A model generated the notes under the pieces. That model made no database searches and was not told the DNA's origin. It saw only the letters and a program-made list of their open reading frames with translations. A DNA stretch of 52,874 nt from Candidatus Tayloriibacteriota bacterium (GTDB lineage: Bacteria > Patescibacteriota > Minisyncoccia > Phycocordibacterales > CAIZLB01): assembly GCA_018883165.1 (NCBI GenBank), contig VEQN01000005.1:1-52874 (forward strand), written 5' to 3'. The translations under genes and the position numbers were made by a program. Of the stretch, positions 4,786 to 39,632 are shown in pieces (positions within the stretch are counted from its first letter, which is position 1; every line of letters starts with the position of its first letter).

Positions 4786-5361
4786 TTAGAAGAGTCCAAG
4801 CTTGTCCAAAACAACTTCGTGGGGATAATCCAAAACATCTCGTACCAGCCTATCTCCCACGCCGAGTCTGTACTTAAAGTCTTCTGAATCAAGAATTGCA
4901 TACTTAATCTCTTTACCCATCTCTGCTTCAATAGAGGACATAACTGATTCAACCGTTCCTCTCTTTGTGTTGTCTGCTACCACGAGAATATCGATAGTGT
5001 TATCCCATAATTCTTTAAATATTCCTGAAAACACAACGAGTTTAATTCTTCCAATCTTTGAAATTTTTTTTACAATAGGCTGTTTGTGTACCAAACTTGT
5101 CTGCAAGAGCAGTCTTTGGAATTCAACCAAATATGGAAACCTGTCATTAAGGTACCACACTACCGTGTTCCCTCCTCGTGATGATTTTTTAATTAGTCCA
5201 ACTTTGGCAAGAAAGTTTAATTCCCTTCTCGCTCGACTTGTTTCAACTTTTGACCGATCTACAACATCACTTGTTTCATAATACAAAGTAGGATTAAACA
5301 AAAATAATCTCATTAATTTTACTCTTGCTGCACCTCCAAATATTTTCTCAAGTGTGTCCAT
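4786..5361 (-). CDS. Winged-HTH protein with a C-terminal nucleotidyltransferase-like domain
   Basis: N-terminal LEKIFG..ARVKLMRLF...RELNFL wHTH; C-terminal VVFSGIF...IDILVV...GKEIKY minimal-NTase-like fold. Confidence 0.7.
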   Translation of the reverse strand: MDTLEKIFGGAARVKLMRLFLFNPTLYYETSDVVDRSKVETSRARRELNFLAKVGLIKKSSRGGNTVVWYLNDRFPYLVEFQRLLLQTSLVHKQPIVKKISKIGRIKLVVFSGIFKELWDNTIDILVVADNTKRGTVESVMSSIEAEMGKEIKYAILDSEDFKYRLGVGDRLVRDVLDYPHEVVLDKLGLF

Positions 5362-5501
5362 TTTCTTTCTGTAGTTATCTGATAAATTCAGTTCGGCTCA
5401 TGAATATCCGACTGTCTTAATATGTAATAAATGTATCATATTTTTAAACAAAAAGCCCCACCCACCGCGAAGAGTGAGGCTCTTTGCAGATAGATGGTGC
5501 G

Positions 5502-6104
5502 TTACGCAGCAAGCGCTGCGGGCTCAACGAAATATGACCGCCAAGCCACGAATTCCTGTTGACGCAAATCACCTGGATCTTCTTCAGTTTTCTGGGCCTT
5601 GAGTTGTGCTTTGATGTCACCAACGCTTTGCATGACAGGTTCGACCAAGTCGAACATATCATCGTAGCGAATGAATTGATACCCTCCTGCTGGTAGTGCA
5701 GGGTCAAGAATCAAACGCGTGACACTCGCATCGTGATGTGCAGCGGCGATTGTCGGCTTTCCCCGAGCAACCGTTTGAACACCGAACTCGACGCCGAGAC
5801 CGATAGATGGAAGATCACACAGTGCGACGAAGAGGTGGCAACGCATCACACAGTTTTCGATATCATGGATCCACACATCACGAGGAGTACCTGCGGCAAG
5901 ACCGAGGAACTCAAGGACGACGCATCCGCGCTTTACCAATTCCGCCTTAAAGCGAACCACTTTATCCCTGAATTCGGGTGGTGCTTGTGTAAGCGCACAA
6001 CCGACGTAAACCCTGACTTCGGGTTCATACTCAAACAATTGGAGCTGTCTAATCATAGTGATTGGGGTTTGAAATTGTCGACGAGCTAACGTTTCGTTTC
6101 CCAT
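5502..6104 (-). CDS. Nucleoside 2-deoxyribosyltransferase / Rcl(DNPH1)-like N-glycosidase
   Basis: VYVGCALT...DIENCVMRCHLFVAL..PSIGLGVEFG with the family Glu. Start moved to ATG 6104 (alternative 6056) because the longer ORF crosses the rplL terminator. Confidence 0.7.
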   Translation of the reverse strand: MGNETLARRQFQTPITMIRQLQLFEYEPEVRVYVGCALTQAPPEFRDKVVRFKAELVKRGCVVLEFLGLAAGTPRDVWIHDIENCVMRCHLFVALCDLPSIGLGVEFGVQTVARGKPTIAAAHHDASVTRLILDPALPAGGYQFIRYDDMFDLVEPVMQSVGDIKAQLKAQKTEEDPGDLRQQEFVAWRSYFVEPAALAA

Positions 6105-30194: not shown

Positions 30195-30228
30195 ATATTA
30201 AAACCCCTCCTCCGAGGGGTTTTAATAT
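30195..30228. terminator. Bidirectional terminator
   Basis: aatattaaaacccctc-ctcc-gaggggttttaatatt. Confidence 0.88.
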
Positions 30229-32165
30229 TATCTTCCTCCACCAACCTTTTCTTCCCCAAACTTATATCCCGGATCACTTTCAAGTTTGGTATCGAGATCA
30301 TCTACAGTCTGCTCTACAATGCCACCCGTAAAGGTATCTCGGCCTCGTATACTCTGCTTGGTAATTATCTGCGGAGTTTGTCCAACTTGACCCAAACTTG
30401 GTAGGAATGACACCTGATATGCGAACTCTTTTGCACTTGCTGAAAATCCTGTTCCAGCTGCAAGATCTCCCACTGTCCATGTAAGCTCTCGTGTATCTTC
30501 GTTGTATTTCACTCCTGCATTTCCTGGGTGTGTAATACCAAGCCATTCAACATAAGGTGGCAGTGTTGCTCGATATACCACATCTTTTACATTATTATAT
30601 GAGTTATTGAGACTCACCATGACTGTATATGTTGTGCGCTGATCTGGGACCGGGGTCGATGGGCCAGTATTTTCAAACGGACCCACAGATCGTACAAGTT
30701 TTGATTTGATACCAAGATCAGATGAGACCTTGATTGTCTTAGTCACAGTCGAACTAATCTCTTGAGGCACATTATCTTCGTCTAATCGTTTAGCCTTTAC
30801 GGTAAGATCAAAAGTTAGTGTCTGTCTTCTGAATTCAGAATTATTTTTTAAGGTTGGAGGAAGTGGTGCAAAAGAGAATTGTACACGACCAACAGCACCT
30901 GCTGGTATTTCTTTCAAATCAGCAAGGGTAGTTCTATCCCACATGATTGTATTATCTATTGATCGATAGAATCCTCGCTCCCCTTCTATACTGAGCTTAT
31001 CGAGCATTTCACCACCGAATCGTGCTTCTACTACTACATCTGTAAGTGGAACTGGTAGGTTATTCTGCCATGTTATTTCACCCTTAACATTTACACCGGC
31101 TCTAGCGATATGAGTTGACGCAGTCTTACCATCAAGTGATACGTCAGCACCAAGGAACGGTCGCTTGAGTGCTATTGGTACTGCATTGGTTACGAATATA
31201 GTTCCAATGTCATTCTTATCTTCAGGATTTTCAGTACCGGTATAGAATCGGAACACTCGCTCTTGACTATCCCCTCCAATGAGTGAACCCTTGAGAGTTA
31301 TGATTCGTTCTTCACCAGGTTTAACATCACCAAGTACCCATGTTGTATTTTCAGAAGACGGTACCGGAAATGCTGATATGTATTCAAATCCATATGGGTA
31401 TTCAGCTTTGAGTACCAAACCTTTTATAACATTTGTACTATTTGATTTTACAGTAATCTTAAATTCTGCATATTGTCCAGGAATGATTTCCTTAAACGAA
31501 TCAACATCAACCGCAATCGGTGATGATCCGATGAATATCGGGTAGTCTTTGTCCTTCACAAATATATTACTTGAACCTTCAATTCGATATTCCAAAGATA
31601 CACGAATTCCTTTCTTCAAGTTTTCTTCACCGAACAAAACTGACTTAACTGTTTGTCTTACTGTTTGACCAGGTTTAATTGTACCAATTGGCACCCTATC
31701 ATTTGGTAGTGGTGTTATATGATCCCTAGCACTTCGTGTACCTTCTGGGTACAAAATTACAAGGTCGGCTAGAATGAGATCTGTTTTGTTTCTGTTTGTA
31801 ATATCAATATCTACCGATAACTCTTCCCCTGCTGGTGTTGCAATTGGCCCAAGCATTTTAATATCGATATTGCTGTTAGAAACTGAGTTTGCACCACTAA
31901 ATACCATATATCCAGCAAAAAGTCCTGCAAAGAGAAGACAGATTAAAGCAAGTGTAAATATTTTTTTTGCTATAGACCCTCGATTAGGATCATATTTTCT
32001 AACTTCAACCACAGGATTAACATTCTCCGCATCTTCTCTCCAATCTGACCCAACCATCACACTATGCTTTGGTAGCTTTGCTCGTCTTTGCACAGCAATG
32101 GCATTCTCTTCAGCATTTGAATAGAGTCGTTTTTTTAGTTCTTCAATTTTACCGTCATTTGGCAT
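30228..32165 (-). CDS. Membrane-anchored protein with tandem Ig-like (DUF11-like) domains
   Basis: Single TM followed by repeated ..N......YP.GF....W.LG...PG patterns. Confidence 0.75.
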   Translation of the reverse strand: MPNDGKIEELKKRLYSNAEENAIAVQRRAKLPKHSVMVGSDWREDAENVNPVVEVRKYDPNRGSIAKKIFTLALICLLFAGLFAGYMVFSGANSVSNSNIDIKMLGPIATPAGEELSVDIDITNRNKTDLILADLVILYPEGTRSARDHITPLPNDRVPIGTIKPGQTVRQTVKSVLFGEENLKKGIRVSLEYRIEGSSNIFVKDKDYPIFIGSSPIAVDVDSFKEIIPGQYAEFKITVKSNSTNVIKGLVLKAEYPYGFEYISAFPVPSSENTTWVLGDVKPGEERIITLKGSLIGGDSQERVFRFYTGTENPEDKNDIGTIFVTNAVPIALKRPFLGADVSLDGKTASTHIARAGVNVKGEITWQNNLPVPLTDVVVEARFGGEMLDKLSIEGERGFYRSIDNTIMWDRTTLADLKEIPAGAVGRVQFSFAPLPPTLKNNSEFRRQTLTFDLTVKAKRLDEDNVPQEISSTVTKTIKVSSDLGIKSKLVRSVGPFENTGPSTPVPDQRTTYTVMVSLNNSYNNVKDVVYRATLPPYVEWLGITHPGNAGVKYNEDTRELTWTVGDLAAGTGFSASAKEFAYQVSFLPSLGQVGQTPQIITKQSIRGRDTFTGGIVEQTVDDLDTKLESDPGYKFGEEKVGGGR

Positions 32166-32177
32166 GTCAAAAGTATA

Positions 32178-32771
32178 TCACAGGTGACTTTCATGAAGTG
32201 CCCCATCAATACACCCCTGTATATATGTCCTATACTCTCTTATATGAACTAATGTATCTGTCGTAAGTGAGTTAGGCGCTGTCACCAATCCCAAAACCGG
32301 ATCTACGGGGCAATACCCTAACAAGTTCAGTAACTGAACTTGAAAGTACATGTATGTCTCAGATATATATTCAATGACCTTTTGTTTTTCTTGAAAACAA
32401 AAGGATGCGCAGGTATTAACTAGATTGAACACATCAGACACAGGTACATCCTGCGGTGTTAGACGTTTAACAAACAGCAACATCTCAACGCATAACCTTT
32501 TAATTTGAATGGGTAATCTCTTATCATAAAGAGATATCAACTTTTCTGCGTTTGTAAGTCTCCATATTTCCTTCCCCCTTACCAGAGACACCCTAGAGAA
32601 ACTGTAATCCTGGATAGATGCTTTTAATTTAGATGTTGATAGCCTAACTCCTTGTGCAGCTACATATATTAATCCAAGATTGTCCGTAAGCATTAAAAGC
32701 TTTTTACTTGCTTCACCTGTCTGACCACTTTCGATTATATATGCTTTTGTTTGGTAGATGTGATGTGACAT
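32178..32771 (-). CDS. recO: DNA repair protein RecO
   Basis: GEA.K...LT..LG.I...AQGVR...SKL N-terminal OB motif; LLNLLGY. Confidence 0.85.
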   Translation of the reverse strand: MSHHIYQTKAYIIESGQTGEASKKLLMLTDNLGLIYVAAQGVRLSTSKLKASIQDYSFSRVSLVRGKEIWRLTNAEKLISLYDKRLPIQIKRLCVEMLLFVKRLTPQDVPVSDVFNLVNTCASFCFQEKQKVIEYISETYMYFQVQLLNLLGYCPVDPVLGLVTAPNSLTTDTLVHIREYRTYIQGCIDGALHESHL

Positions 32772-35700
32772 GATACGAATACACCCGGAACTAATTCGAA
32801 CTTTTCACCTGTAAATACATCATCTGTTTCAGCAACCAGATTGAATGAAATTTTCTGCACCGAAGCCTTCTTTGGAAGGTCAGTGTATCCGGTTATGTAT
32901 TTCTCCGCTTGCGAAACATCTGTTGTGGCAACAACCATCTCAATCTCATCTTTAGGTTCAAGATTTGCTTCTTTTCGTTTCTCCTGAACACTTCGTAGAA
33001 TATCACGGAGCACACCCTCAACCTTAAGCTCTTCTGTAACTTCAGTATCGAGTACAATATCTGTTCCACGAACAACAGATTTTACATTCATTTCATCCTT
33101 AACAATCTCTTCCAGTTGCTGAGAAAGGTCGAATTCAGAACCATTGTATGTGAATGCCCTGAGCGGTTGTCTTGCCTTTATTCCCGCCTTAGATCGGAGT
33201 GCAAGACCCATCTCAATCACTTTTCGTGTCTTCGCCATTCCTTCAATTAGCTGAGTGTCTGCTGTTGGCATATGTGGCCACGGAGAGAGATGCACACTTA
33301 CTGCAGTATCAATTTTTGGATCTCGAATTCGTAGATACAAGTATTCTGCAAAGAATGGTGTGATTGGAGCCATGAGCTTTGCAAAAGTAACCAACACATA
33401 CTGAGTTGTCTGAATTGCATGTTCCCTATCAACCATGTCCTCACTCTTGAATCTGTCTCTTGATCGTCTAAGGTACCACGTAGAAAGATCGTCTACAAAT
33501 TCACCAAGACTTCGTGTTGCCTTATCAACGAAGAATCCATCGAGACTTTTCTCAATGATTCCTTTCGTCTCAGAGAGTCTCCCTAATATCCACTGGTCGA
33601 GTACATGAGTACTTGATGGATATGCAACTATTTCTGCTTTTGTTTCAGCAGCATACATGTTATAGAAGGTGTAGACGTTTTCAAGTCTGTTGAACACCTT
33701 CTTGTTTACCTCATCAAGAGCCTTCTCAGAGAATAGCACCTCTTCGGCATGTGATGCTGGAGATGCTGCGAGCATATATCGAAGTGAATCAGCACCATAC
33801 ATATCAAGCGTTGGTTCAAGATCAGGATAGTTTCTCAAACTCTTAGACATCTTTCTACCATCTTCAGCAAGTATGAGTCCTGAAACTGTTACATTCTTGT
33901 ATGGGCTCTTACCAAAAAGTGCCACACCTAATACGAGGAGTGAATAAAACCAACCTCTTGTTTGATCAAGTCCTTCCGCGATGAAATCGGCTGGGAACAG
34001 TTCACTACCATCAACATCAAATGAATGTGTACTCTCGAACGGATAGTGGTTCTGTGCGAAAGGCATAGAACCAGAGTCATACCATACATCAAACACCTCT
34101 CCTACCCGTTTATACACTTCACCTTTTTCATTTTGCCATGTAATACCATCAATATATGGTCGATGGAGATCGAGTTCAAAATCAGGACCATGTGGAAGAT
34201 CTCTGAAATCTACATCATGTATTGACGCTGTTGGATCAGAAATATCTCTCCATTCTGATCGAAGGAAATCTCTTGCTGTTTTTCCAACCGCAGAGGCTGT
34301 TGCTAGTCTCAGTGGCAACCCGTGCGTAATCACAAGAACATGTTCGTCTGTATTCTTTGCATTGATATCATACAAAAGCTCTGTGATCCTCTGTTTTACG
34401 TCAAAGACTGATTCACCGTTTGGAACCCGCTTATATATCTTTTCCTCAAGGGTACTGAAGTATGATAATCGCTCACCCCAATCACCACCATCGAAGTCAC
34501 CTCCATTTATCTCTCTTGCCCGTCTATCAAGCACAATGTTTTTTGGATCAATACCTAATACCTCAGCTACAATCTCAGCTGTTTCTCTTGTTCGTCTGAA
34601 GTCAGATGCATAGATTTTTGTAATCTTGTTAGGAAGATTCTTTAGCTTCTCTGCTGATGCAAGAACCTCTGCTCTACCTTTTGCTGTAAGGCCATACAAG
34701 TTAAGACCTTTCTCAGTGGAATTAATGATGTTTTTAACATTTGTCTCACATTCACCATGTCTCATCAGTGTAAAATGATTTTTCTTTTGGATATGTTTTT
34801 TTAACTCTTCAACACTTCCAATGAAAACCTTCTCCCCAGTCGTTTGGTTTTTCCATACTGGGAGTGGGGCTCCCCAATACCTTGATCGTGATACATTCCA
34901 ATCTCGAACATTTTCAAGCCATTCACCGAATCTATTCTCACCGACTTCTTTAGGGATCCAATTAATCTTTTTGTTTTCTTCAATTAATTTTTCCTGAAGA
35001 TCTGTGACCCGAACAAACCATGATGAGTTTGGATAATTCAAAAGAGGAGTTTCACATCTCCAACAATGTGGGTATGAGTGAGTAATTTTTTCTTTCGCAA
35101 AAAGAAGTGGGTTACCTGCCGAATTAGTAGTATGTGCCAAGAGCTTAATTGCCTCAATATCAGTCTTTTGATGATCTTCTTTAGGCTTTGCAGGAAGACC
35201 CGAAAGCACTCCGTTACCTTCCTTAATCACACCGTCTGGATGTACATGCACAATGAGTGGAATGTTGTGTTTTCGAGCAAGTGTCACGTCATCGCTACCA
35301 AACGCTGCGATATGGACAATACCCGTACCATCCTCTGCAGTTACAAAATCTGCTGCATATACTTTCCAGAGTGCATCTCGCTTAGACTCCCCATCTTCAT
35401 TCAATGTTCCACTGTTTGTATAGAAATTAAAGGGTGGAATATATGAGGTACCAACAAAATCTTTTCCAAGCTTTGAATCAAGAACAGGAGCATTTTCTGG
35501 GAGAATTTTTTTCTCTGTGAGAGGTGCAACGAGCGCAGAAGCAAGCCAAACCTTTCCGTTTGGTGTATCTAGGAGTGAATATTCAAGTTCTGGAGAAACA
35601 GCAAGTGCCATGTTACCCGGCAGCGTCCAAGGTGTTGTTGTCCATGCAAGAAAGTTTGTACCTGAACCATCTTTTAACTCAAAGAGTGTATATGCTGAAA

Positions 35701-36325
35701 GATCTGGAATATCTTTGTACCCCTGCCCCACTTCAAAGTTAGACAGAGTAGTCTGGCATCGAGGACAATAGTGCATGGCCTGATTAGCTTCATACACCAA
35801 TCCTTTCTTGTTTAATTCAGAGAAAGACCACCATACTGATTCAGTGTAGCTTGAATCCATTGTATGATATCCACTTTCCATATCAACCCATCGTCCAAGC
35901 TTCTCTACAATTCGTTTCCAATCTGTGTCATACCGAAACACACTGTCTTTAGCAGCTTTGTTAAACTTTTCAATTCCATATTCTTCAATTGCTTTTTTGT
36001 CTTTCAAGCCTAATTCCTTCTCAATGAGGTTTTCGATTGGAAGACCGTGACAGTCCCACCCCCACTTTCTCTTCACTCTGTACCCCTGCATGGTCTTGTA
36101 TCGAGGAATGATGTCTTTGATTGTTGAAGGGAGCATGTGCCCATAGTGTGGAAGACCAGTAGCATATGGTGGACCATCAAAAAATACATAGTTACCCTTT
36201 GGAGCATCTTTTGTGACAGAGGCTTCAAAAATACGTTGCTCTTTCCAGAAACGTCGAATTGACTCCTCACGAACCTGAGGAGTAACTGGACCTTGTGTAT
36301 TTTTTGAATCTGTTTCTGAAGACAT
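32735..36325 (-). CDS. ileS: Isoleucine--tRNA ligase (type 2) with an inserted histidine-phosphatase domain
   Basis: DGPPYATGLPHYGH, GWDCHGLP, WTTTPWTLP, GTGIVH, YPHCWRC, DW.VSR.RYWG, EGLDQTRGWFY, KMSKS; insert with RHG...SDF.R..ET...RE...THG. Confidence 0.97.
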   Translation of the reverse strand: MSSETDSKNTQGPVTPQVREESIRRFWKEQRIFEASVTKDAPKGNYVFFDGPPYATGLPHYGHMLPSTIKDIIPRYKTMQGYRVKRKWGWDCHGLPIENLIEKELGLKDKKAIEEYGIEKFNKAAKDSVFRYDTDWKRIVEKLGRWVDMESGYHTMDSSYTESVWWSFSELNKKGLVYEANQAMHYCPRCQTTLSNFEVGQGYKDIPDLSAYTLFELKDGSGTNFLAWTTTPWTLPGNMALAVSPELEYSLLDTPNGKVWLASALVAPLTEKKILPENAPVLDSKLGKDFVGTSYIPPFNFYTNSGTLNEDGESKRDALWKVYAADFVTAEDGTGIVHIAAFGSDDVTLARKHNIPLIVHVHPDGVIKEGNGVLSGLPAKPKEDHQKTDIEAIKLLAHTTNSAGNPLLFAKEKITHSYPHCWRCETPLLNYPNSSWFVRVTDLQEKLIEENKKINWIPKEVGENRFGEWLENVRDWNVSRSRYWGAPLPVWKNQTTGEKVFIGSVEELKKHIQKKNHFTLMRHGECETNVKNIINSTEKGLNLYGLTAKGRAEVLASAEKLKNLPNKITKIYASDFRRTRETAEIVAEVLGIDPKNIVLDRRAREINGGDFDGGDWGERLSYFSTLEEKIYKRVPNGESVFDVKQRITELLYDINAKNTDEHVLVITHGLPLRLATASAVGKTARDFLRSEWRDISDPTASIHDVDFRDLPHGPDFELDLHRPYIDGITWQNEKGEVYKRVGEVFDVWYDSGSMPFAQNHYPFESTHSFDVDGSELFPADFIAEGLDQTRGWFYSLLVLGVALFGKSPYKNVTVSGLILAEDGRKMSKSLRNYPDLEPTLDMYGADSLRYMLAASPASHAEEVLFSEKALDEVNKKVFNRLENVYTFYNMYAAETKAEIVAYPSSTHVLDQWILGRLSETKGIIEKSLDGFFVDKATRSLGEFVDDLSTWYLRRSRDRFKSEDMVDREHAIQTTQYVLVTFAKLMAPITPFFAEYLYLRIRDPKIDTAVSVHLSPWPHMPTADTQLIEGMAKTRKVIEMGLALRSKAGIKARQPLRAFTYNGSEFDLSQQLEEIVKDEMNVKSVVRGTDIVLDTEVTEELKVEGVLRDILRSVQEKRKEANLEPKDEIEMVVATTDVSQAEKYITGYTDLPKKASVQKISFNLVAETDDVFTGEKFELVPGVFVSCHITSTKQKHI

Positions 36326-36394
36326 ATGTATAACTTACTTAATATGTGGGTATCGTAGCACGTTTACCACTGTAAAAAAAGATAATAAGACAAG

Positions 36395-36437
36395 CCGTCC
36401 ATGTAACCCCTAATCGCTTGTGGGTTTACATGGACGG
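36395..36437 (-). terminator. Hairpin / probable terminator after the basic ORFan
   Basis: ccgtccatgtaa...ttacatggacgg, 12-bp arms. Confidence 0.65.
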
Positions 36438-36445
36438 CTCATTGG

Positions 36446-36649
36446 TCACCTCTTGGGTGACAGCTTCTTTGAAGTGGTCACCTTTGTGACTGTAATGGTG
36501 ATGAAGTATGTGGAATACCAGTGTGGTCTTTCCCTGTTCAGCTTTCTCTTCTGCCACTTCGTCAGCTTTCGCTTCCTTGGTGGCCGTGATTTTTTGGGTG
36601 GTTCTTGACGAGGGAATGACCGACTGCGCTCCGGCTTTTTCTTCGACAT
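36446..36649 (-). CDS. Small Lys/Arg-rich hypothetical protein (67 aa)
   Basis: ATG start between a promoter-like TTGACG..CATTCT, a 5' hairpin (36677-36719) and a 3' hairpin. A second overlapping frame is also open. Confidence 0.4.
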   Translation of the reverse strand: MSKKKPERSRSFPRQEPPKKSRPPRKRKLTKWQKRKLNRERPHWYSTYFITITVTKVTTSKKLSPKR

Positions 36650-36764
36650 ACACTTTGGGGATTGATATTGAACTGACGAGGTTTAGATTCGTGGATTTAG
36701 ACAAAATCCACAAACCTCGATTTATATATAGAATGCTCCTTGTACTCCAAAACGTCAAGTGTGC

Positions 36765-37763
36765 TTACATTTCAACATGAGAATATTTTTTCTTCCCGAT
36801 TCTTCCCTTCATCTTGCAACTTTCTCCACAAAATACGAGAGGTACCGCATCGTGTGCATTTCCCGCTTTGGCGGCACACTGATCGCATACAAGCATTTTT
36901 GAATGACACTCATCGTTGGCACAATTTTCAAATCTTTCTGTTGTCGTTCCACACAAATCACACTTTCCGATTACTTCTCTCTTGTCTGTAAATGCCATCG
37001 TATCTCGGTTATCAAATACAAAGAGTGCTCCCAGGAAATCCTCTCCTGGATATTTTTCCATGTATGTATGCATACCTCCATCAAGCTGATATACATTATC
37101 AAATCCATTCTCCATTAAAAAACCTGACGCCTTTTCACACCGAATACCTCCAGTACATACCGTAAGGATCTTTTTACCTTCTTTTGATGCTTTCTTAACT
37201 TCTTCAAGTGCTGGGAGAACTTGTGGCAACTCTCTAAAGTTGTTCATCTTCGGATTGATTGATCCTTTAAAATGCCCGACTTTAAATTCATAGTCATTTC
37301 GCATATCTACGATGAGAAAATCCTCACCATTCTCATACCATGCTTTAAGTTCTTCTGGTTTCAAATGCACACCTGTTGTTTTGTTTGGATCAATATCAGT
37401 CACTACAACTCCCCCGTCTTTAGCAATTGGCGCATTCTTCATCTTGAGTGCAACAACTTCCTCTCTAACTTTAACTTTAAGTTTAGGAAAAGAACTTCCA
37501 GTGCCAGGACTTCTCTTAAAGACAACGTCACTAAAGTTTCCAAATGTCCCCTCTGAACCATCCTGAAGATGCATAAGTTTTGTATATTCCAAAATATCTT
37601 CTTTCTTTCCTTCGAGAGTTCCATTTATTCCCTCTTGTGCGATGAGCACACGCCCTTTGAGATTAAGGTTTGTACAGATTGTCTTGTGCCAATTCACAAA
37701 ACCCACAGGATCTTGTACTGGGGTATATTTGTAATATAGGATGATTTCGTATGTTGGTGTCAT
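36765..37763 (-). CDS. trhO: tRNA uridine(34) hydroxylase TrhO (YceA/UPF0176, rhodanese-related)
   Basis: LYYKY, GR.LIA.EGINGT, D.RN.YE..VGHF, CTGGIRCEKAS, L.GG..Y, FVFD.R, C-terminal Cys cluster. Confidence 0.92.
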   Translation of the reverse strand: MTPTYEIILYYKYTPVQDPVGFVNWHKTICTNLNLKGRVLIAQEGINGTLEGKKEDILEYTKLMHLQDGSEGTFGNFSDVVFKRSPGTGSSFPKLKVKVREEVVALKMKNAPIAKDGGVVVTDIDPNKTTGVHLKPEELKAWYENGEDFLIVDMRNDYEFKVGHFKGSINPKMNNFRELPQVLPALEEVKKASKEGKKILTVCTGGIRCEKASGFLMENGFDNVYQLDGGMHTYMEKYPGEDFLGALFVFDNRDTMAFTDKREVIGKCDLCGTTTERFENCANDECHSKMLVCDQCAAKAGNAHDAVPLVFCGESCKMKGRIGKKKYSHVEM

Positions 37764-37781: not shown

Positions 37782-39632
37782 TCACATCTTTAATGGTACT
37801 TGAATACCTAAGACTTTGAGGCCATTTTTAAGGACAATATGGAATGCTCGTACCACCGCTACTTTATATCTTGATTCAAAATCATCAATTTGGACAATTG
37901 GAACTGATGCATAGAATGAATTAAATGCAGCAGCTAACTCCATCAGGTATGTTGCAACTACATGAGGAGACTCTTCGCTTTGTGCCTTTTCAAGAGTTTC
38001 CGGGAATCGCACCAACAAGTTCTCAAGTCTTCCAAGTTTAGCTGATGTCTCGGATGGTATTACTGAGATATCAGACACATCAACCATTTCAATGATTCCT
38101 TCTCTTTGTGCCTTATCGAGCACAGACTTTGCTCGTACACATGAATATTGGAGATATGGTCCAGAATCACCTTCAAATGACAATGACTTCTCAGGGTCAA
38201 ATACAACATCCTTACCAATTGCTTGTCGAAGTACTGTGTATTTAATTGCAGCAACCGCAATCATTTCTGCTGCTTTTTTCTTGTCTTCATCTGGCATATC
38301 ACGTTCTTTCATTTTCGAAAGAGCAAGATCAATCATTGATGCAATGAGTGATTCACCTGTAATAACATCGCCCGTTCGTGATGACATCTTACCTGTTGTG
38401 AGTCGAAGCATCCCATGAGAAATATGTCTTGCTTTACTTCCAAACTCCGGGAAGAGTTCTCTAAGGATACACAAAGACACTTTGAAGAAATCATCTTGCT
38501 CATTTGCGGTTACAGTAATGCCATCATCATACTGAAACGCGCCGTATTTCATCGGTGCAAGCCCTATCTCCTTCCCGTCATATGTTGGAAGTCCTTGTCT
38601 TGTGATTAAGACTCGAGTATGAAGTCCGTATTTTTCACCTGGAAAAATAACAGCGCCATTACTCTCCTCAAACAATTTCTTACCCTCTGGTACTGTATGT
38701 TCTTTAATTATGTTCAATGCATCTATAGATGCAGCGCTCTCAAAGAAATACCTATCAAACTTCGTACCCAGAAGCTGGTACAATTCTTCAAAACTTTGAA
38801 GACTCCATTCCTTTCCAAGATCATATATCTCGTTAATCTCAGGATCAGTTCTGAAATATATTGCCTTGTTAATATTCTGTACCTCTTCGTCAATTTTCAA
38901 AAACTCTTCACTGTTAGCAAGACCGGCTTCATTAACCTGCCCCGCCTTCTTTGATGCATCCTCTACCTCTTTGTATTTTGTAGCACCAAGAGCATATGCT
39001 TTTCCAAAAAATGCCACCCTCTCTGAAAGAGGCACTGATTCATCAGGGAGAAAACCTATATGATTCCCTTCTTTGTATTCGGGCATCAATCGAAGACCCC
39101 ATATGGTGAGTGCAACATGTCTTCCAACATCTCCTTGGTAACAAAAACGCTTTACCTCAGCTCCTTGCGTTTCTGTAAGTCGAGCAAGAGATTCTCCGAT
39201 CGTGTTGGCCATCAAATGACCAATATGAAATACCTTAAATGGATTAGGGTCTGTATATTCATACAACACTTTCTTCGGAGCACCTCCGATTACCAAGTTT
39301 TTTGACTTTCCAAACAAGTCCCCTTCCTCGAGGATTTTTGCAATTACTTCCTTGGTAGCTTTTCGTGTCACATAGAAGTTAATGAAACCTGGCCCAGCCA
39401 CCTCAATTTTATCTATACTAGAAATCTGTTTTTCCTTCAGTTTGTCTACAAATTCAATGGCAAGTGCAAGCGGTGATTTACTTGCTTTTTTCGCAAGCAC
39501 AAGCGCGATACTTGTGGCAAAATCTCCTTTTGCCATATCAGCTGGTCTTTCAAGTACAATATCTAGATTAAGGTCTTTGTACCCCAACTCTTCTACAACA
39601 GTAGTTAATGCTTGTTTTATAGCGTGTCTCAT
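37782..39632 (-). CDS. argS: Arginine--tRNA ligase
   Basis: GDFAT, AGPGFINF, EYTDPNPFK.FHIGH, KMSSRTG, GDSGPYLQY. Confidence 0.97.
   Translation of the reverse strand: MRHAIKQALTTVVEELGYKDLNLDIVLERPADMAKGDFATSIALVLAKKASKSPLALAIEFVDKLKEKQISSIDKIEVAGPGFINFYVTRKATKEVIAKILEEGDLFGKSKNLVIGGAPKKVLYEYTDPNPFKVFHIGHLMANTIGESLARLTETQGAEVKRFCYQGDVGRHVALTIWGLRLMPEYKEGNHIGFLPDESVPLSERVAFFGKAYALGATKYKEVEDASKKAGQVNEAGLANSEEFLKIDEEVQNINKAIYFRTDPEINEIYDLGKEWSLQSFEELYQLLGTKFDRYFFESAASIDALNIIKEHTVPEGKKLFEESNGAVIFPGEKYGLHTRVLITRQGLPTYDGKEIGLAPMKYGAFQYDDGITVTANEQDDFFKVSLCILRELFPEFGSKARHISHGMLRLTTGKMSSRTGDVITGESLIASMIDLALSKMKERDMPDEDKKKAAEMIAVAAIKYTVLRQAIGKDVVFDPEKSLSFEGDSGPYLQYSCVRAKSVLDKAQREGIIEMVDVSDISVIPSETSAKLGRLENLLVRFPETLEKAQSEESPHVVATYLMELAAAFNSFYASVPIVQIDDFESRYKVAVVRAFHIVLKNGLKVLGIQVPLKM

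Follow-up and report, generated by a model that had tools for sequence, protein, structure and literature searches.

We report here an isoleucyl-tRNA synthetase (IleRS) that carries a second enzyme domain, a complete and apparently active histidine phosphatase, within its catalytic body. The protein is encoded by ileS at positions 32735..36325 (minus strand) of a 52,874-nucleotide stretch of DNA from Candidatus Tayloriibacteriota bacterium (contig VEQN01000005.1 of assembly GCA_018883165.1; the whole stretch is hereafter called the window). The gene is a single open frame of 1196 aa, in which a type-2 IleRS is interrupted by the nested phosphatase. Few enzymes have been studied as thoroughly as the aminoacyl-tRNA synthetases, whose nested connective peptide 1 (CP1) editing domains define translational fidelity. 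In the present case an essential synthetase houses another, unrelated enzyme that is apparently active; it is kept throughout an order of Patescibacteria and in the greater part of the class, and has been captured repeatedly, in different loops and in valyl-tRNA synthetase. This arrangement would imply a phosphate-removing reaction, as yet undescribed, that is relevant to the charging of tRNAIle and tRNAVal or to the survival of these enzymes. The sequences are public and automatically annotated, and a link between the phosphatase and tRNA charging is undescribed in the literature searched; in particular, no description of a phosphatase nested in IleRS was found. In 2026, 97,678 IleRS sequences were surveyed for their domain architectures in Nature Communications (PMC13752280); the main text includes none of the terms 'phosphatase', 'Patescibacteria' and 'CPR', and the supplements may list architectures.

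Boundaries of the nested phosphatase

The window protein was aligned with IleRS2 of Priestia megaterium (8c8u), and the two matched in two blocks: residues 16-512 with chain residues 10-478, and residues 712-1084 with chain residues 480-847. The approximately 199 residues between the blocks thus form a clean insertion at one point. This inserted segment (residues 513-711; 34193..34789, minus strand, checked by translation) falls in the gap between 8c8u residues 478 and 480. An earlier reading made from the DNA letters alone (hereafter, the sequence-only reading) had described an insert of about 195 aa between GSVEELKK (residues 503-510) and LDLHRPYID (residues 717-725), and its interval of 34205-34790 was right to within a few codons of the in-frame segment. 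The His_Phos_1 core within the insert spans residues 519-692 (34250..34771, minus strand) and matched Pfam PF00300 with an E value of 2.7e-28 (99.4 bits compared to a gathering score of 21.7, over profile positions 2-171 of 194); a search of the bacterium's own genome recovered the same span.

Residue 510 of the window protein aligned with residue 497 of the Candida albicans IleRS (6ldk). The connective peptide 3 (CP3) subdomain of that enzyme is given as residues 473-534 in an excerpt of PMC7191050, and the insert is therefore placed in CP3, which bears out and narrows the connective-peptide location proposed from sequence. CP3 is described in the same excerpt as a small subdomain that in Thermus thermophilus IleRS holds a zinc motif. 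In base composition the insert matched the remainder of the gene (GC content of 0.399 vs 0.414; GC content at third codon positions of 0.30 vs 0.32 and 0.33). None of the solved IleRS structures in a 2026 copy of the PDB has the insert; the sequence-only reading had likewise stated that ordinary IleRS is without such a domain.

The synthetase body

The protein surrounding the insert was recognized as IleRS along its full length. NCBIfam profile TIGR00392 (ileS) matched the whole protein with 830.5 bits (cut-off 621.4) in two stretches that flank the insert, and Pfam analysis of the 1196-aa protein found tRNA-synt_1 split around His_Phos_1, followed by Anticodon_1 at residues 910-1057 and DUF5915 (PF19302) at residues 1076-1150. 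Residues 1-512 (34790..36325, minus strand; 8c8u residues 10-478) comprise the first Rossmann half, the CP1 editing domain, CP2 and the first part of CP3. This part includes HYGH, the class I HIGH motif (residues 60-63; 36137-36148, minus strand), and the CP1 editing motifs WTTTPWT at residue 228 and GTGIVH at residue 333. Residues 712-1196 and the stop codon (32735..34192, minus strand; 8c8u residues 480-847) supply the rest of CP3, the second Rossmann half, and the anticodon-binding and type-2 C-terminal domains. KMSKS is located at residues 825-829 (33839-33853, minus strand), and its lysines K825 and K828 were found in 104/104 aligned homologues. The codons of both HYGH and KMSKS were checked by translation.

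The type-2 assignment, which the sequence-only reading had based on HYGH and the lack of a C-terminal zinc finger, was sustained: the C-terminal domain matched PF19302 and not a zinc-binding domain, and the best structural matches were IleRS2 and eukaryotic IleRS, with 685 bits to 8c8u compared to 288 bits to the type-1 enzyme 8c9e. When the own genome was searched (748,599 bp, 99.7% complete), the window ileS was the only locus to pass the ileS cut-off, and the remaining class Ia matches were ValRS-, LeuRS- and MetRS-like. The window protein is, on this sequence comparison, predicted to serve as the cell's only, housekeeping IleRS. When the complete protein was modeled by AlphaFold2 from an alignment with 104 homologues, the model had a mean predicted local distance difference test (pLDDT) score of 91.9 and a predicted template modeling (pTM) score of 0.85, with the insert and its linkers at pLDDT 85-97. 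The body of this model was matched by Foldseek to 8c8v (TMt 0.84) and 1ile (TMt 0.92).

Conservation of the catalytic residues

In the superfamily of phosphoglycerate mutase (PGM)-like phosphatases, phosphohistidine catalysis is assigned to RHG, Arg, Glu and His residues. All four motifs that the sequence-only reading had taken as a full catalytic set, LMRHGE (residues 520-525), SDFRRTRET (574-582), REINGG (604-609) and ITHG (666-669), were found in frame within the His_Phos_1 domain. Conservation was assessed by aligning 104 full-length IleRS proteins that carry the fusion (39-77% identical overall). Invariant in 104/104 were R522-H523-G524 (34754..34762), which provide the phosphate-binding Arg and the nucleophile His; R578, the second phosphate-binding Arg (34592..34594); H668, the second catalytic His (34322..34324); and R646. 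The general acid E605 (34511..34513) was Glu in 103/104 and Asp in 1/104, and N529 was kept in 100/104. The codons of R522-H523-G524, R578, E605, H668 and N529 were checked, and all of these features lie on the minus strand.

A similar pattern was detected when a profile of the insert was used to collect all 194 IleRS domain copies at this first site: R578 was present in 194, H668 in 193, and R522 and H523 in 192 (with 2 gaps), and position 605 was Glu in 189 copies and Asp in the other 5. Domain copies at two other IleRS sites (4 and 5 copies) and in an operon form (5 copies), described below, kept the catalytic residues and N529 without exception. The 6 ValRS domain copies kept these residues except for N529 replaced by His in one, H668 by Ser in one, and E605 by Asp in one. 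Mean identity to 103 homologues was 48% for the insert; the values for the editing and anticodon-binding domains were similar, at 51% and 47%, and that for the C-terminal domains was lower, at 33%. We infer from these residues that the insert is a complete, catalytically competent branch-1 histidine phosphatase.

Predicted fold and comparison with known enzymes

The isolated domain was modeled by AlphaFold2 with a pLDDT of 94.2 and a pTM of 0.91, and Foldseek assigned it with probability 1.00 to the alpha/beta/alpha fold of the PGM-like phosphatases. The neighbors listed at ranks 1-50 were small-molecule phosphatases, phosphoglycerate mutases and a few uncharacterized proteins (TMq 0.62-0.79, 18-27% identity), and included PspA, GpgP, TIGAR, PhoE, HFP (a riboflavin-pathway phosphatase), CobC and FBPase-2. 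PhoE/YhfR (1EBB, 1H2E) shares the fold, the size and the R-H-G/R/E/H set of the insert and is its closest solved relative in sequence (phmmer E=3e-10). The same fold, size and catalytic set are found in PspA/iPSP1 (4IJ5, 4IJ6), Rv2419c GpgP (4PZ9) and CobC; matches of the insert to PspA, GpgP and PhoE had Foldseek E values of 7e-14 to 1e-11, TMq of 0.74-0.79 and 22-27% identity. By contrast to PhoE, PspA, Rv2419c and CobC, which are free-standing, this phosphatase sits within a synthetase or is tied to one genetically. The net charge of the fused domains was near neutral (mean -1.4, sd 5.0, n=194), which is weakly suggestive of something other than an RNA-binding module.

No cut-off of a curated NCBIfam phosphatase family was reached by the insert. 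Assignment to alpha-ribazole phosphatase CobC (TIGR03162, 71 bits vs 162.9), to the phosphoserine phosphatase PspA profile (54 bits vs 350), to phosphohistidine phosphatase SixA (TIGR00249, 30.1 bits vs 74.5, with only insert residues 8-81, the N-terminal half, aligned) and to the dPGM families (TIGR01258, 27.6 vs 81.7; NF038349, dPGM_arch, 69.2 vs 225) was rejected on these scores.

On the synthetase side, the type-2 enzymes of P. megaterium (8C8U/8C8V) and T. thermophilus (1ILE) have the same body as the window protein (phmmer E=1e-204 to 8c8u), and the window protein differs from these solved structures by the approximately 199 extra residues inside CP3. That IleRS can house an additional enzyme has a precedent in the ileS_w_GNAT family (NF040702). 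The window protein falls outside this family (276.6 bits vs 1999), and no acetyltransferase was detected in its Pfam scan. A fusion of a CobC-like phosphatase to a nucleic-acid enzyme is found in the actinobacterial RNase H / acid phosphatase (NF005567, PRK07238), with whose phosphatase half the insert aligns at 65 bits, below the family cut-off of 326; that fusion is end to end and not nested. To our knowledge, functional coupling in the RNase H / acid phosphatase protein is also unexplained. Taken singly, neither part is unusual: the body is that of a standard type-2 IleRS, and the insert is a common kind of small branch-1 histidine phosphatase outside the curated subfamilies. It is their combination that is new.

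Distribution of the nested domain

Residues 500-720 of the window protein were searched against 5.8 billion protein clusters, with length limited to 657-2093 aa. By this approach 113 proteins were recovered, and 113/113 had both PF00133 and PF00300. These carriers came from several independent sources, with contigs of up to 771 kb. Those that were named belonged to Paceibacterota, Parcubacteria or Patescibacteria, and their annotation went no further than 'isoleucine--tRNA ligase' or 'class I tRNA ligase family protein'; one (P0100) has a JGI record that names IleRS, SixA-like and GNAT parts.

The domain was similarly widespread among genomes sampled by taxonomy. In the window's order (41 genomes from 17 families and 22 genera), the best match to the insert lay in a frame of at least 726 aa in 41/41 genomes and of at least 1105 aa in 39/41. 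In the class sample, 150/201 genomes matched the insert at E<=1e-8; among the matches listed, at least 130 of the best matches were in frames of at least 669 aa and at least 14 were in free-standing genes of 179-231 aa. Elsewhere in the phylum, 34/283 sampled genomes matched at E<=1e-10, with a match in a long frame in 18 of the 34; 8 of the 18 were examined, with 5 found to be IleRS and 3 ValRS.

Split genes, other insertion sites and ValRS carriers

A split form of the system was found in one family (f31), where 5/5 genomes encoded an insert-less IleRS of 909-962 aa and a free His_Phos_1 gene of 181-192 aa. The free gene was immediately 5' of ileS on the same strand, with stop and start codons abutting or overlapping. 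In one genome (G149) the gene order was argS-phosphatase-ileS, and only a few bases separated the genes; in another (G093) argS was followed by the phosphatase, two unknown open reading frames (ORFs) and ileS. The upstream gene was identified as arginyl-tRNA synthetase (ArgRS) by Pfam in both cases. The two ORFs between phosphatase and ileS in G093 (L027 5612..7069, minus strand, 485 aa; 5353..5820, minus strand, 155 aa) had no Pfam match. Complex prediction for residues 1-800 of the G149 IleRS with the 189-aa phosphatase, from separate alignments, scored 0.00 compared to a mark of 0.32 and counts neither way. In three genomes from other families (G225, G160 and G210) the closest homologue of the insert was free and away from ileS.

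Two additional IleRS loops were found to house the domain. In P0001 numbering, the second site is at residues ~760-777 (P0100, P0125 and P0216) and the third at residues ~893-900, just N-terminal to the anticodon-binding domain (P0100, P0125, P0216, L035 and L041); relatives with the domain at either of these sites had a CP3 site without insert. Tandem pairs occupied the CP3 site in L034, L036 and P0152. Two IleRS proteins, P0100 (aa 784-894) and L035 3135..7415, minus strand (aa 641-739), had a nested GNAT domain as well as one or two His_Phos_1 domains. The same IleRS loops are thus used by two different accessory enzymes, GNAT and His_Phos_1.

The valyl-tRNA synthetase (ValRS) was a second host. 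In 6 ValRS loci that were fetched, the domain was found in the loop equivalent to CP3, and three of these scored 849-903 bits on NF004349 (cut-off 704). A search with one ValRS carrier gave 28 clusters, all with PF00133 and PF00300 and most of ValRS size; two of the 28 were long IleRS proteins, and one of these two was named Peregrinibacteria. A protein of 1161 aa (P0118) had a ValRS-like N-terminal part followed by four tandem His_Phos_1 domains, and its 3 scorable copies kept the catalytic residues.

When the insert alone was searched against 1.84 billion representatives, the best 150 matches comprised 76 IleRS, 2 ValRS, 1 ATP-sulfurylase fusion and 71 short proteins of 91-289 aa in which no synthetase part was detected. 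Many of these short proteins clustered with fused domains and probably represent pieces of fused genes. The ATP-sulfurylase fusion (P0175, 568 aa) joins a close relative of the insert N-terminally to PUA_2 and ATP-sulfurylase, with Gln at the position of the acid Glu; ATP-sulfurylase is another adenylate-forming enzyme that releases pyrophosphate. In a FastTree phylogeny of 192 domains, copies from the ~893-900 loop (the third site, labeled IleRS_site2 in the tree) formed one group with support of 94, and ValRS inserts appeared in up to 4 places, of which the starred branches force only 1.

Judging from these sequence patterns, the association of an apparently active phosphatase with Ile/Val synthetases is an old partnership. 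The sequence-only reading was right about the nested phosphatase; the wider pattern of a split operon form, two further IleRS loops, ValRS carriers and tandem copies had escaped it.

Genome background

Several roles that the insert might have filled were already occupied in the genome or had no source there. A family II Mn-dependent pyrophosphatase was present (NF003877, 350 bits vs 283), which ruled out a tethered pyrophosphatase that fills a gap; PF00719 and PF03030 pyrophosphatases were not detected by profile search of the own genome. The insert was likewise rejected as the cell's phosphoglycerate mutase, as iPGM (PF06415, 226 bits) and enolase were present and the dPGM cut-offs were not reached. 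The case for removal of alarmones, one of the functions put forward in the sequence-only reading, is weakened by the lack of a RelA_SpoT synthetase domain in this 99.7%-complete genome. Reversal of phosphorylation by an endogenous Hanks-type kinase is weakened in the same manner, since no Pkinase domain was found in the own genome by a search that left HipA-type kinases outside its scope. Thus, the pyrophosphatase, PGM, alarmone and Hanks-kinase roles are all unlikely.

The genome also contains two more free His_Phos_1 genes, at G000:C6:71420-71992 (L001 1420..2088, minus strand; 222 aa) and G000:C8:13429-13848 (L002 1411..2052, plus strand; 213 aa). Neither reached the NCBIfam cut-offs, and the 0.75-Mb genome therefore has three uncharacterized histidine phosphatases.

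Proposed function and alternatives

The phosphatase is kept with Ile/Val synthetases in no fixed orientation, its fold neighbors act on small molecules, its charge is near neutral, and the obvious jobs are filled. For these reasons we favor, at about an even chance of being correct, the reading that the insert is a phosphomonoesterase for a small, probably nucleotide-like compound whose action is functionally linked to the charging of Ile and Val tRNAs. Its activity, its mechanism and the class of its substrate, as set out below, are predictions. His523 would take the phosphoryl group, Arg522, Arg578 and His668 would hold it, and Glu605 would protonate the leaving group. The substrate would be a small phosphorylated compound met or made at the Ile/Val synthetases, rather than a protein or the body of a tRNA. 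Selection seems to keep the partnership with these synthetases, through co-expression, fixed stoichiometry or proximity, and not any one geometry.

Several observations weigh against a small-compound phosphomonoesterase of this type. No match to the insert at E<=1e-8 was found in 51/201 class genomes, and the phosphatase function is therefore dispensable in some lineages. The cap (residues 614-636, between E605 and G637), the part that usually determines specificity, was hypervariable, with no column conserved at 70% or above in the 104 homologues; such a cap would fit broad specificity and recognition supplied by the synthetase equally well. Fold neighbors and net charge are both weak discriminators of substrate. 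In addition, 102/188 inner branches of the domain tree are open and many of the short 'free' proteins are probably fragments, so that the tree gives no order for fusion and fission.

It is possible, although improbable, that the phosphatase provides a quality-control or immunity step in Ile/Val synthetases by which a phosphorylated block is cleared, such as a (pyro)phosphate on the A76 ribose or an adenylate-like inhibitor. If true, ultra-small symbionts would keep charging tRNA under attack or damage by this means, and the repeated capture of the domain in three IleRS loops, ValRS, tandems and an operon would be the footprint of strong selection.

An unlikely alternative is healing of the tRNA end. 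Here the domain would strip A76 of a 2'/3'-phosphate, or of the phosphate that remains at a pyrophosphorylated end, so that damaged or toxin-modified tRNAIle and tRNAVal can be recharged. Toxins of the toxSAS group can pyrophosphorylate tRNA 3' ends, and a repair role would suit a domain that is tied to two tRNA-charging enzymes, IleRS and ValRS, that resides in surface loops of the catalytic body, and that in its free form lies within an aminoacyl-tRNA synthetase operon. However, use of three loops and of up to four tandem copies is hard to reconcile with reaching one CCA end, the own genome is without RelA_SpoT as an internal source of damage, and there is no known reason why only the Ile and Val tRNAs would need repair. 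The lack of a nucleic-acid enzyme among the Foldseek neighbors listed, and the near-neutral rather than basic charge of the fused domains, also speak against healing, each as a weak discriminator.

Similarly doubtful is that the domain is a hitch-hiking housekeeping phosphatase, that is, a broad-specificity PhoE-like enzyme mechanistically unrelated to aminoacylation and fused to or co-transcribed with essential, highly expressed genes only for expression in a streamlined genome. The cap is unconserved as in broad-specificity enzymes, the closest solved sequence relative is the broad-specificity PhoE noted above, and the tandem copies resemble an increase in dosage. The link to the synthetase is moreover lost in G225, G160 and G210, where the gene is free and unlinked, the domain is absent from the 51 class genomes, and the relative in P0175 is fused to ATP sulfurylase instead. 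By contrast, the partner was nearly always IleRS or ValRS (76 and 2 of the best 150, compared to the 1 ATP-sulfurylase fusion and the 71 short proteins in which no synthetase part was detected), and repeated capture in three IleRS loops, in ValRS and in the 5/5 operon points to a specific partnership. A genome that already has two other free His_Phos_1 genes also fits poorly with hitch-hiking.

We consider it quite improbable that the domain is a protein phosphatase that acts on the synthetase itself or on a bound partner, for example to reverse inhibition by a toxin kinase. The superfamily includes the protein phosphatases SixA, PGAM5 and Sts-1, and a tether would suit action in cis, for which any of several loops could serve. 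Nevertheless, no protein phosphatase was among the Foldseek neighbors listed, the SixA profile matched the N-terminal half only (30 bits vs 74.5), and the search of the own genome, which did not extend to HipA-type kinases, found no Pkinase.

A non-catalytic module, either a sensor of phosphate or phospho-metabolites or a structural spacer that tunes IleRS, is very improbable. In its favor, the model of the whole protein packs the domain with confidence (pTM 0.85; linker pLDDT 85-97), and the insert replaces the part of CP3 that holds the zinc motif in T. thermophilus IleRS, according to the PMC7191050 excerpt. This reading is opposed by the five catalytic residues, which are conserved in the manner of an enzyme in the 104 homologues and also in the ValRS, other-site and operon forms. 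Finally, the chance that an assembly chimera or mis-joined contig explains the nested phosphatase, the refuting case named in the sequence-only reading, is negligible: the gene is one uninterrupted frame in which the insert has the same composition as the flanking parts, the layout recurs in 41/41 order genomes and in 113 clusters from independent assemblies, and the catalytic residues are invariant in the 104 homologues.

Neighboring genes in the window

Upstream of ileS, argS (37782..39632, minus strand; 616 aa) was named from its translation. Between argS and ileS is a gene for a 332-aa protein with UPF0176_N, Rhodanese and Rhodanese_C domains (36765-37763, minus strand), an architecture that we take to be that of the tRNA U34 hydroxylase TrhO. 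If this gene is TrhO, the stretch would be a run of tRNA-related genes. The 439-bp gap immediately upstream of ileS (36326-36764) has no T-box and is mostly filled by a 110-aa ORF (36426..36758, minus strand). Across 36250-36850, the best Rfam match to a leader or regulator 5' of ileS had E=0.099 and was not credible; promoter-like sites upstream of ileS were fewer than in shuffles.

Downstream, a 197-aa ORF (32178-32771, minus strand), whose only match was RecO_N (E=4.6e-9), shares 37 nt with the 3' end of ileS, which suggests translational coupling of the two genes. It is followed by a gene for a 645-aa protein (30228-32165, minus strand) with two DUF11 repeats and, as seen in its translation, an N-terminal hydrophobic segment; this protein is likely to be a surface protein.

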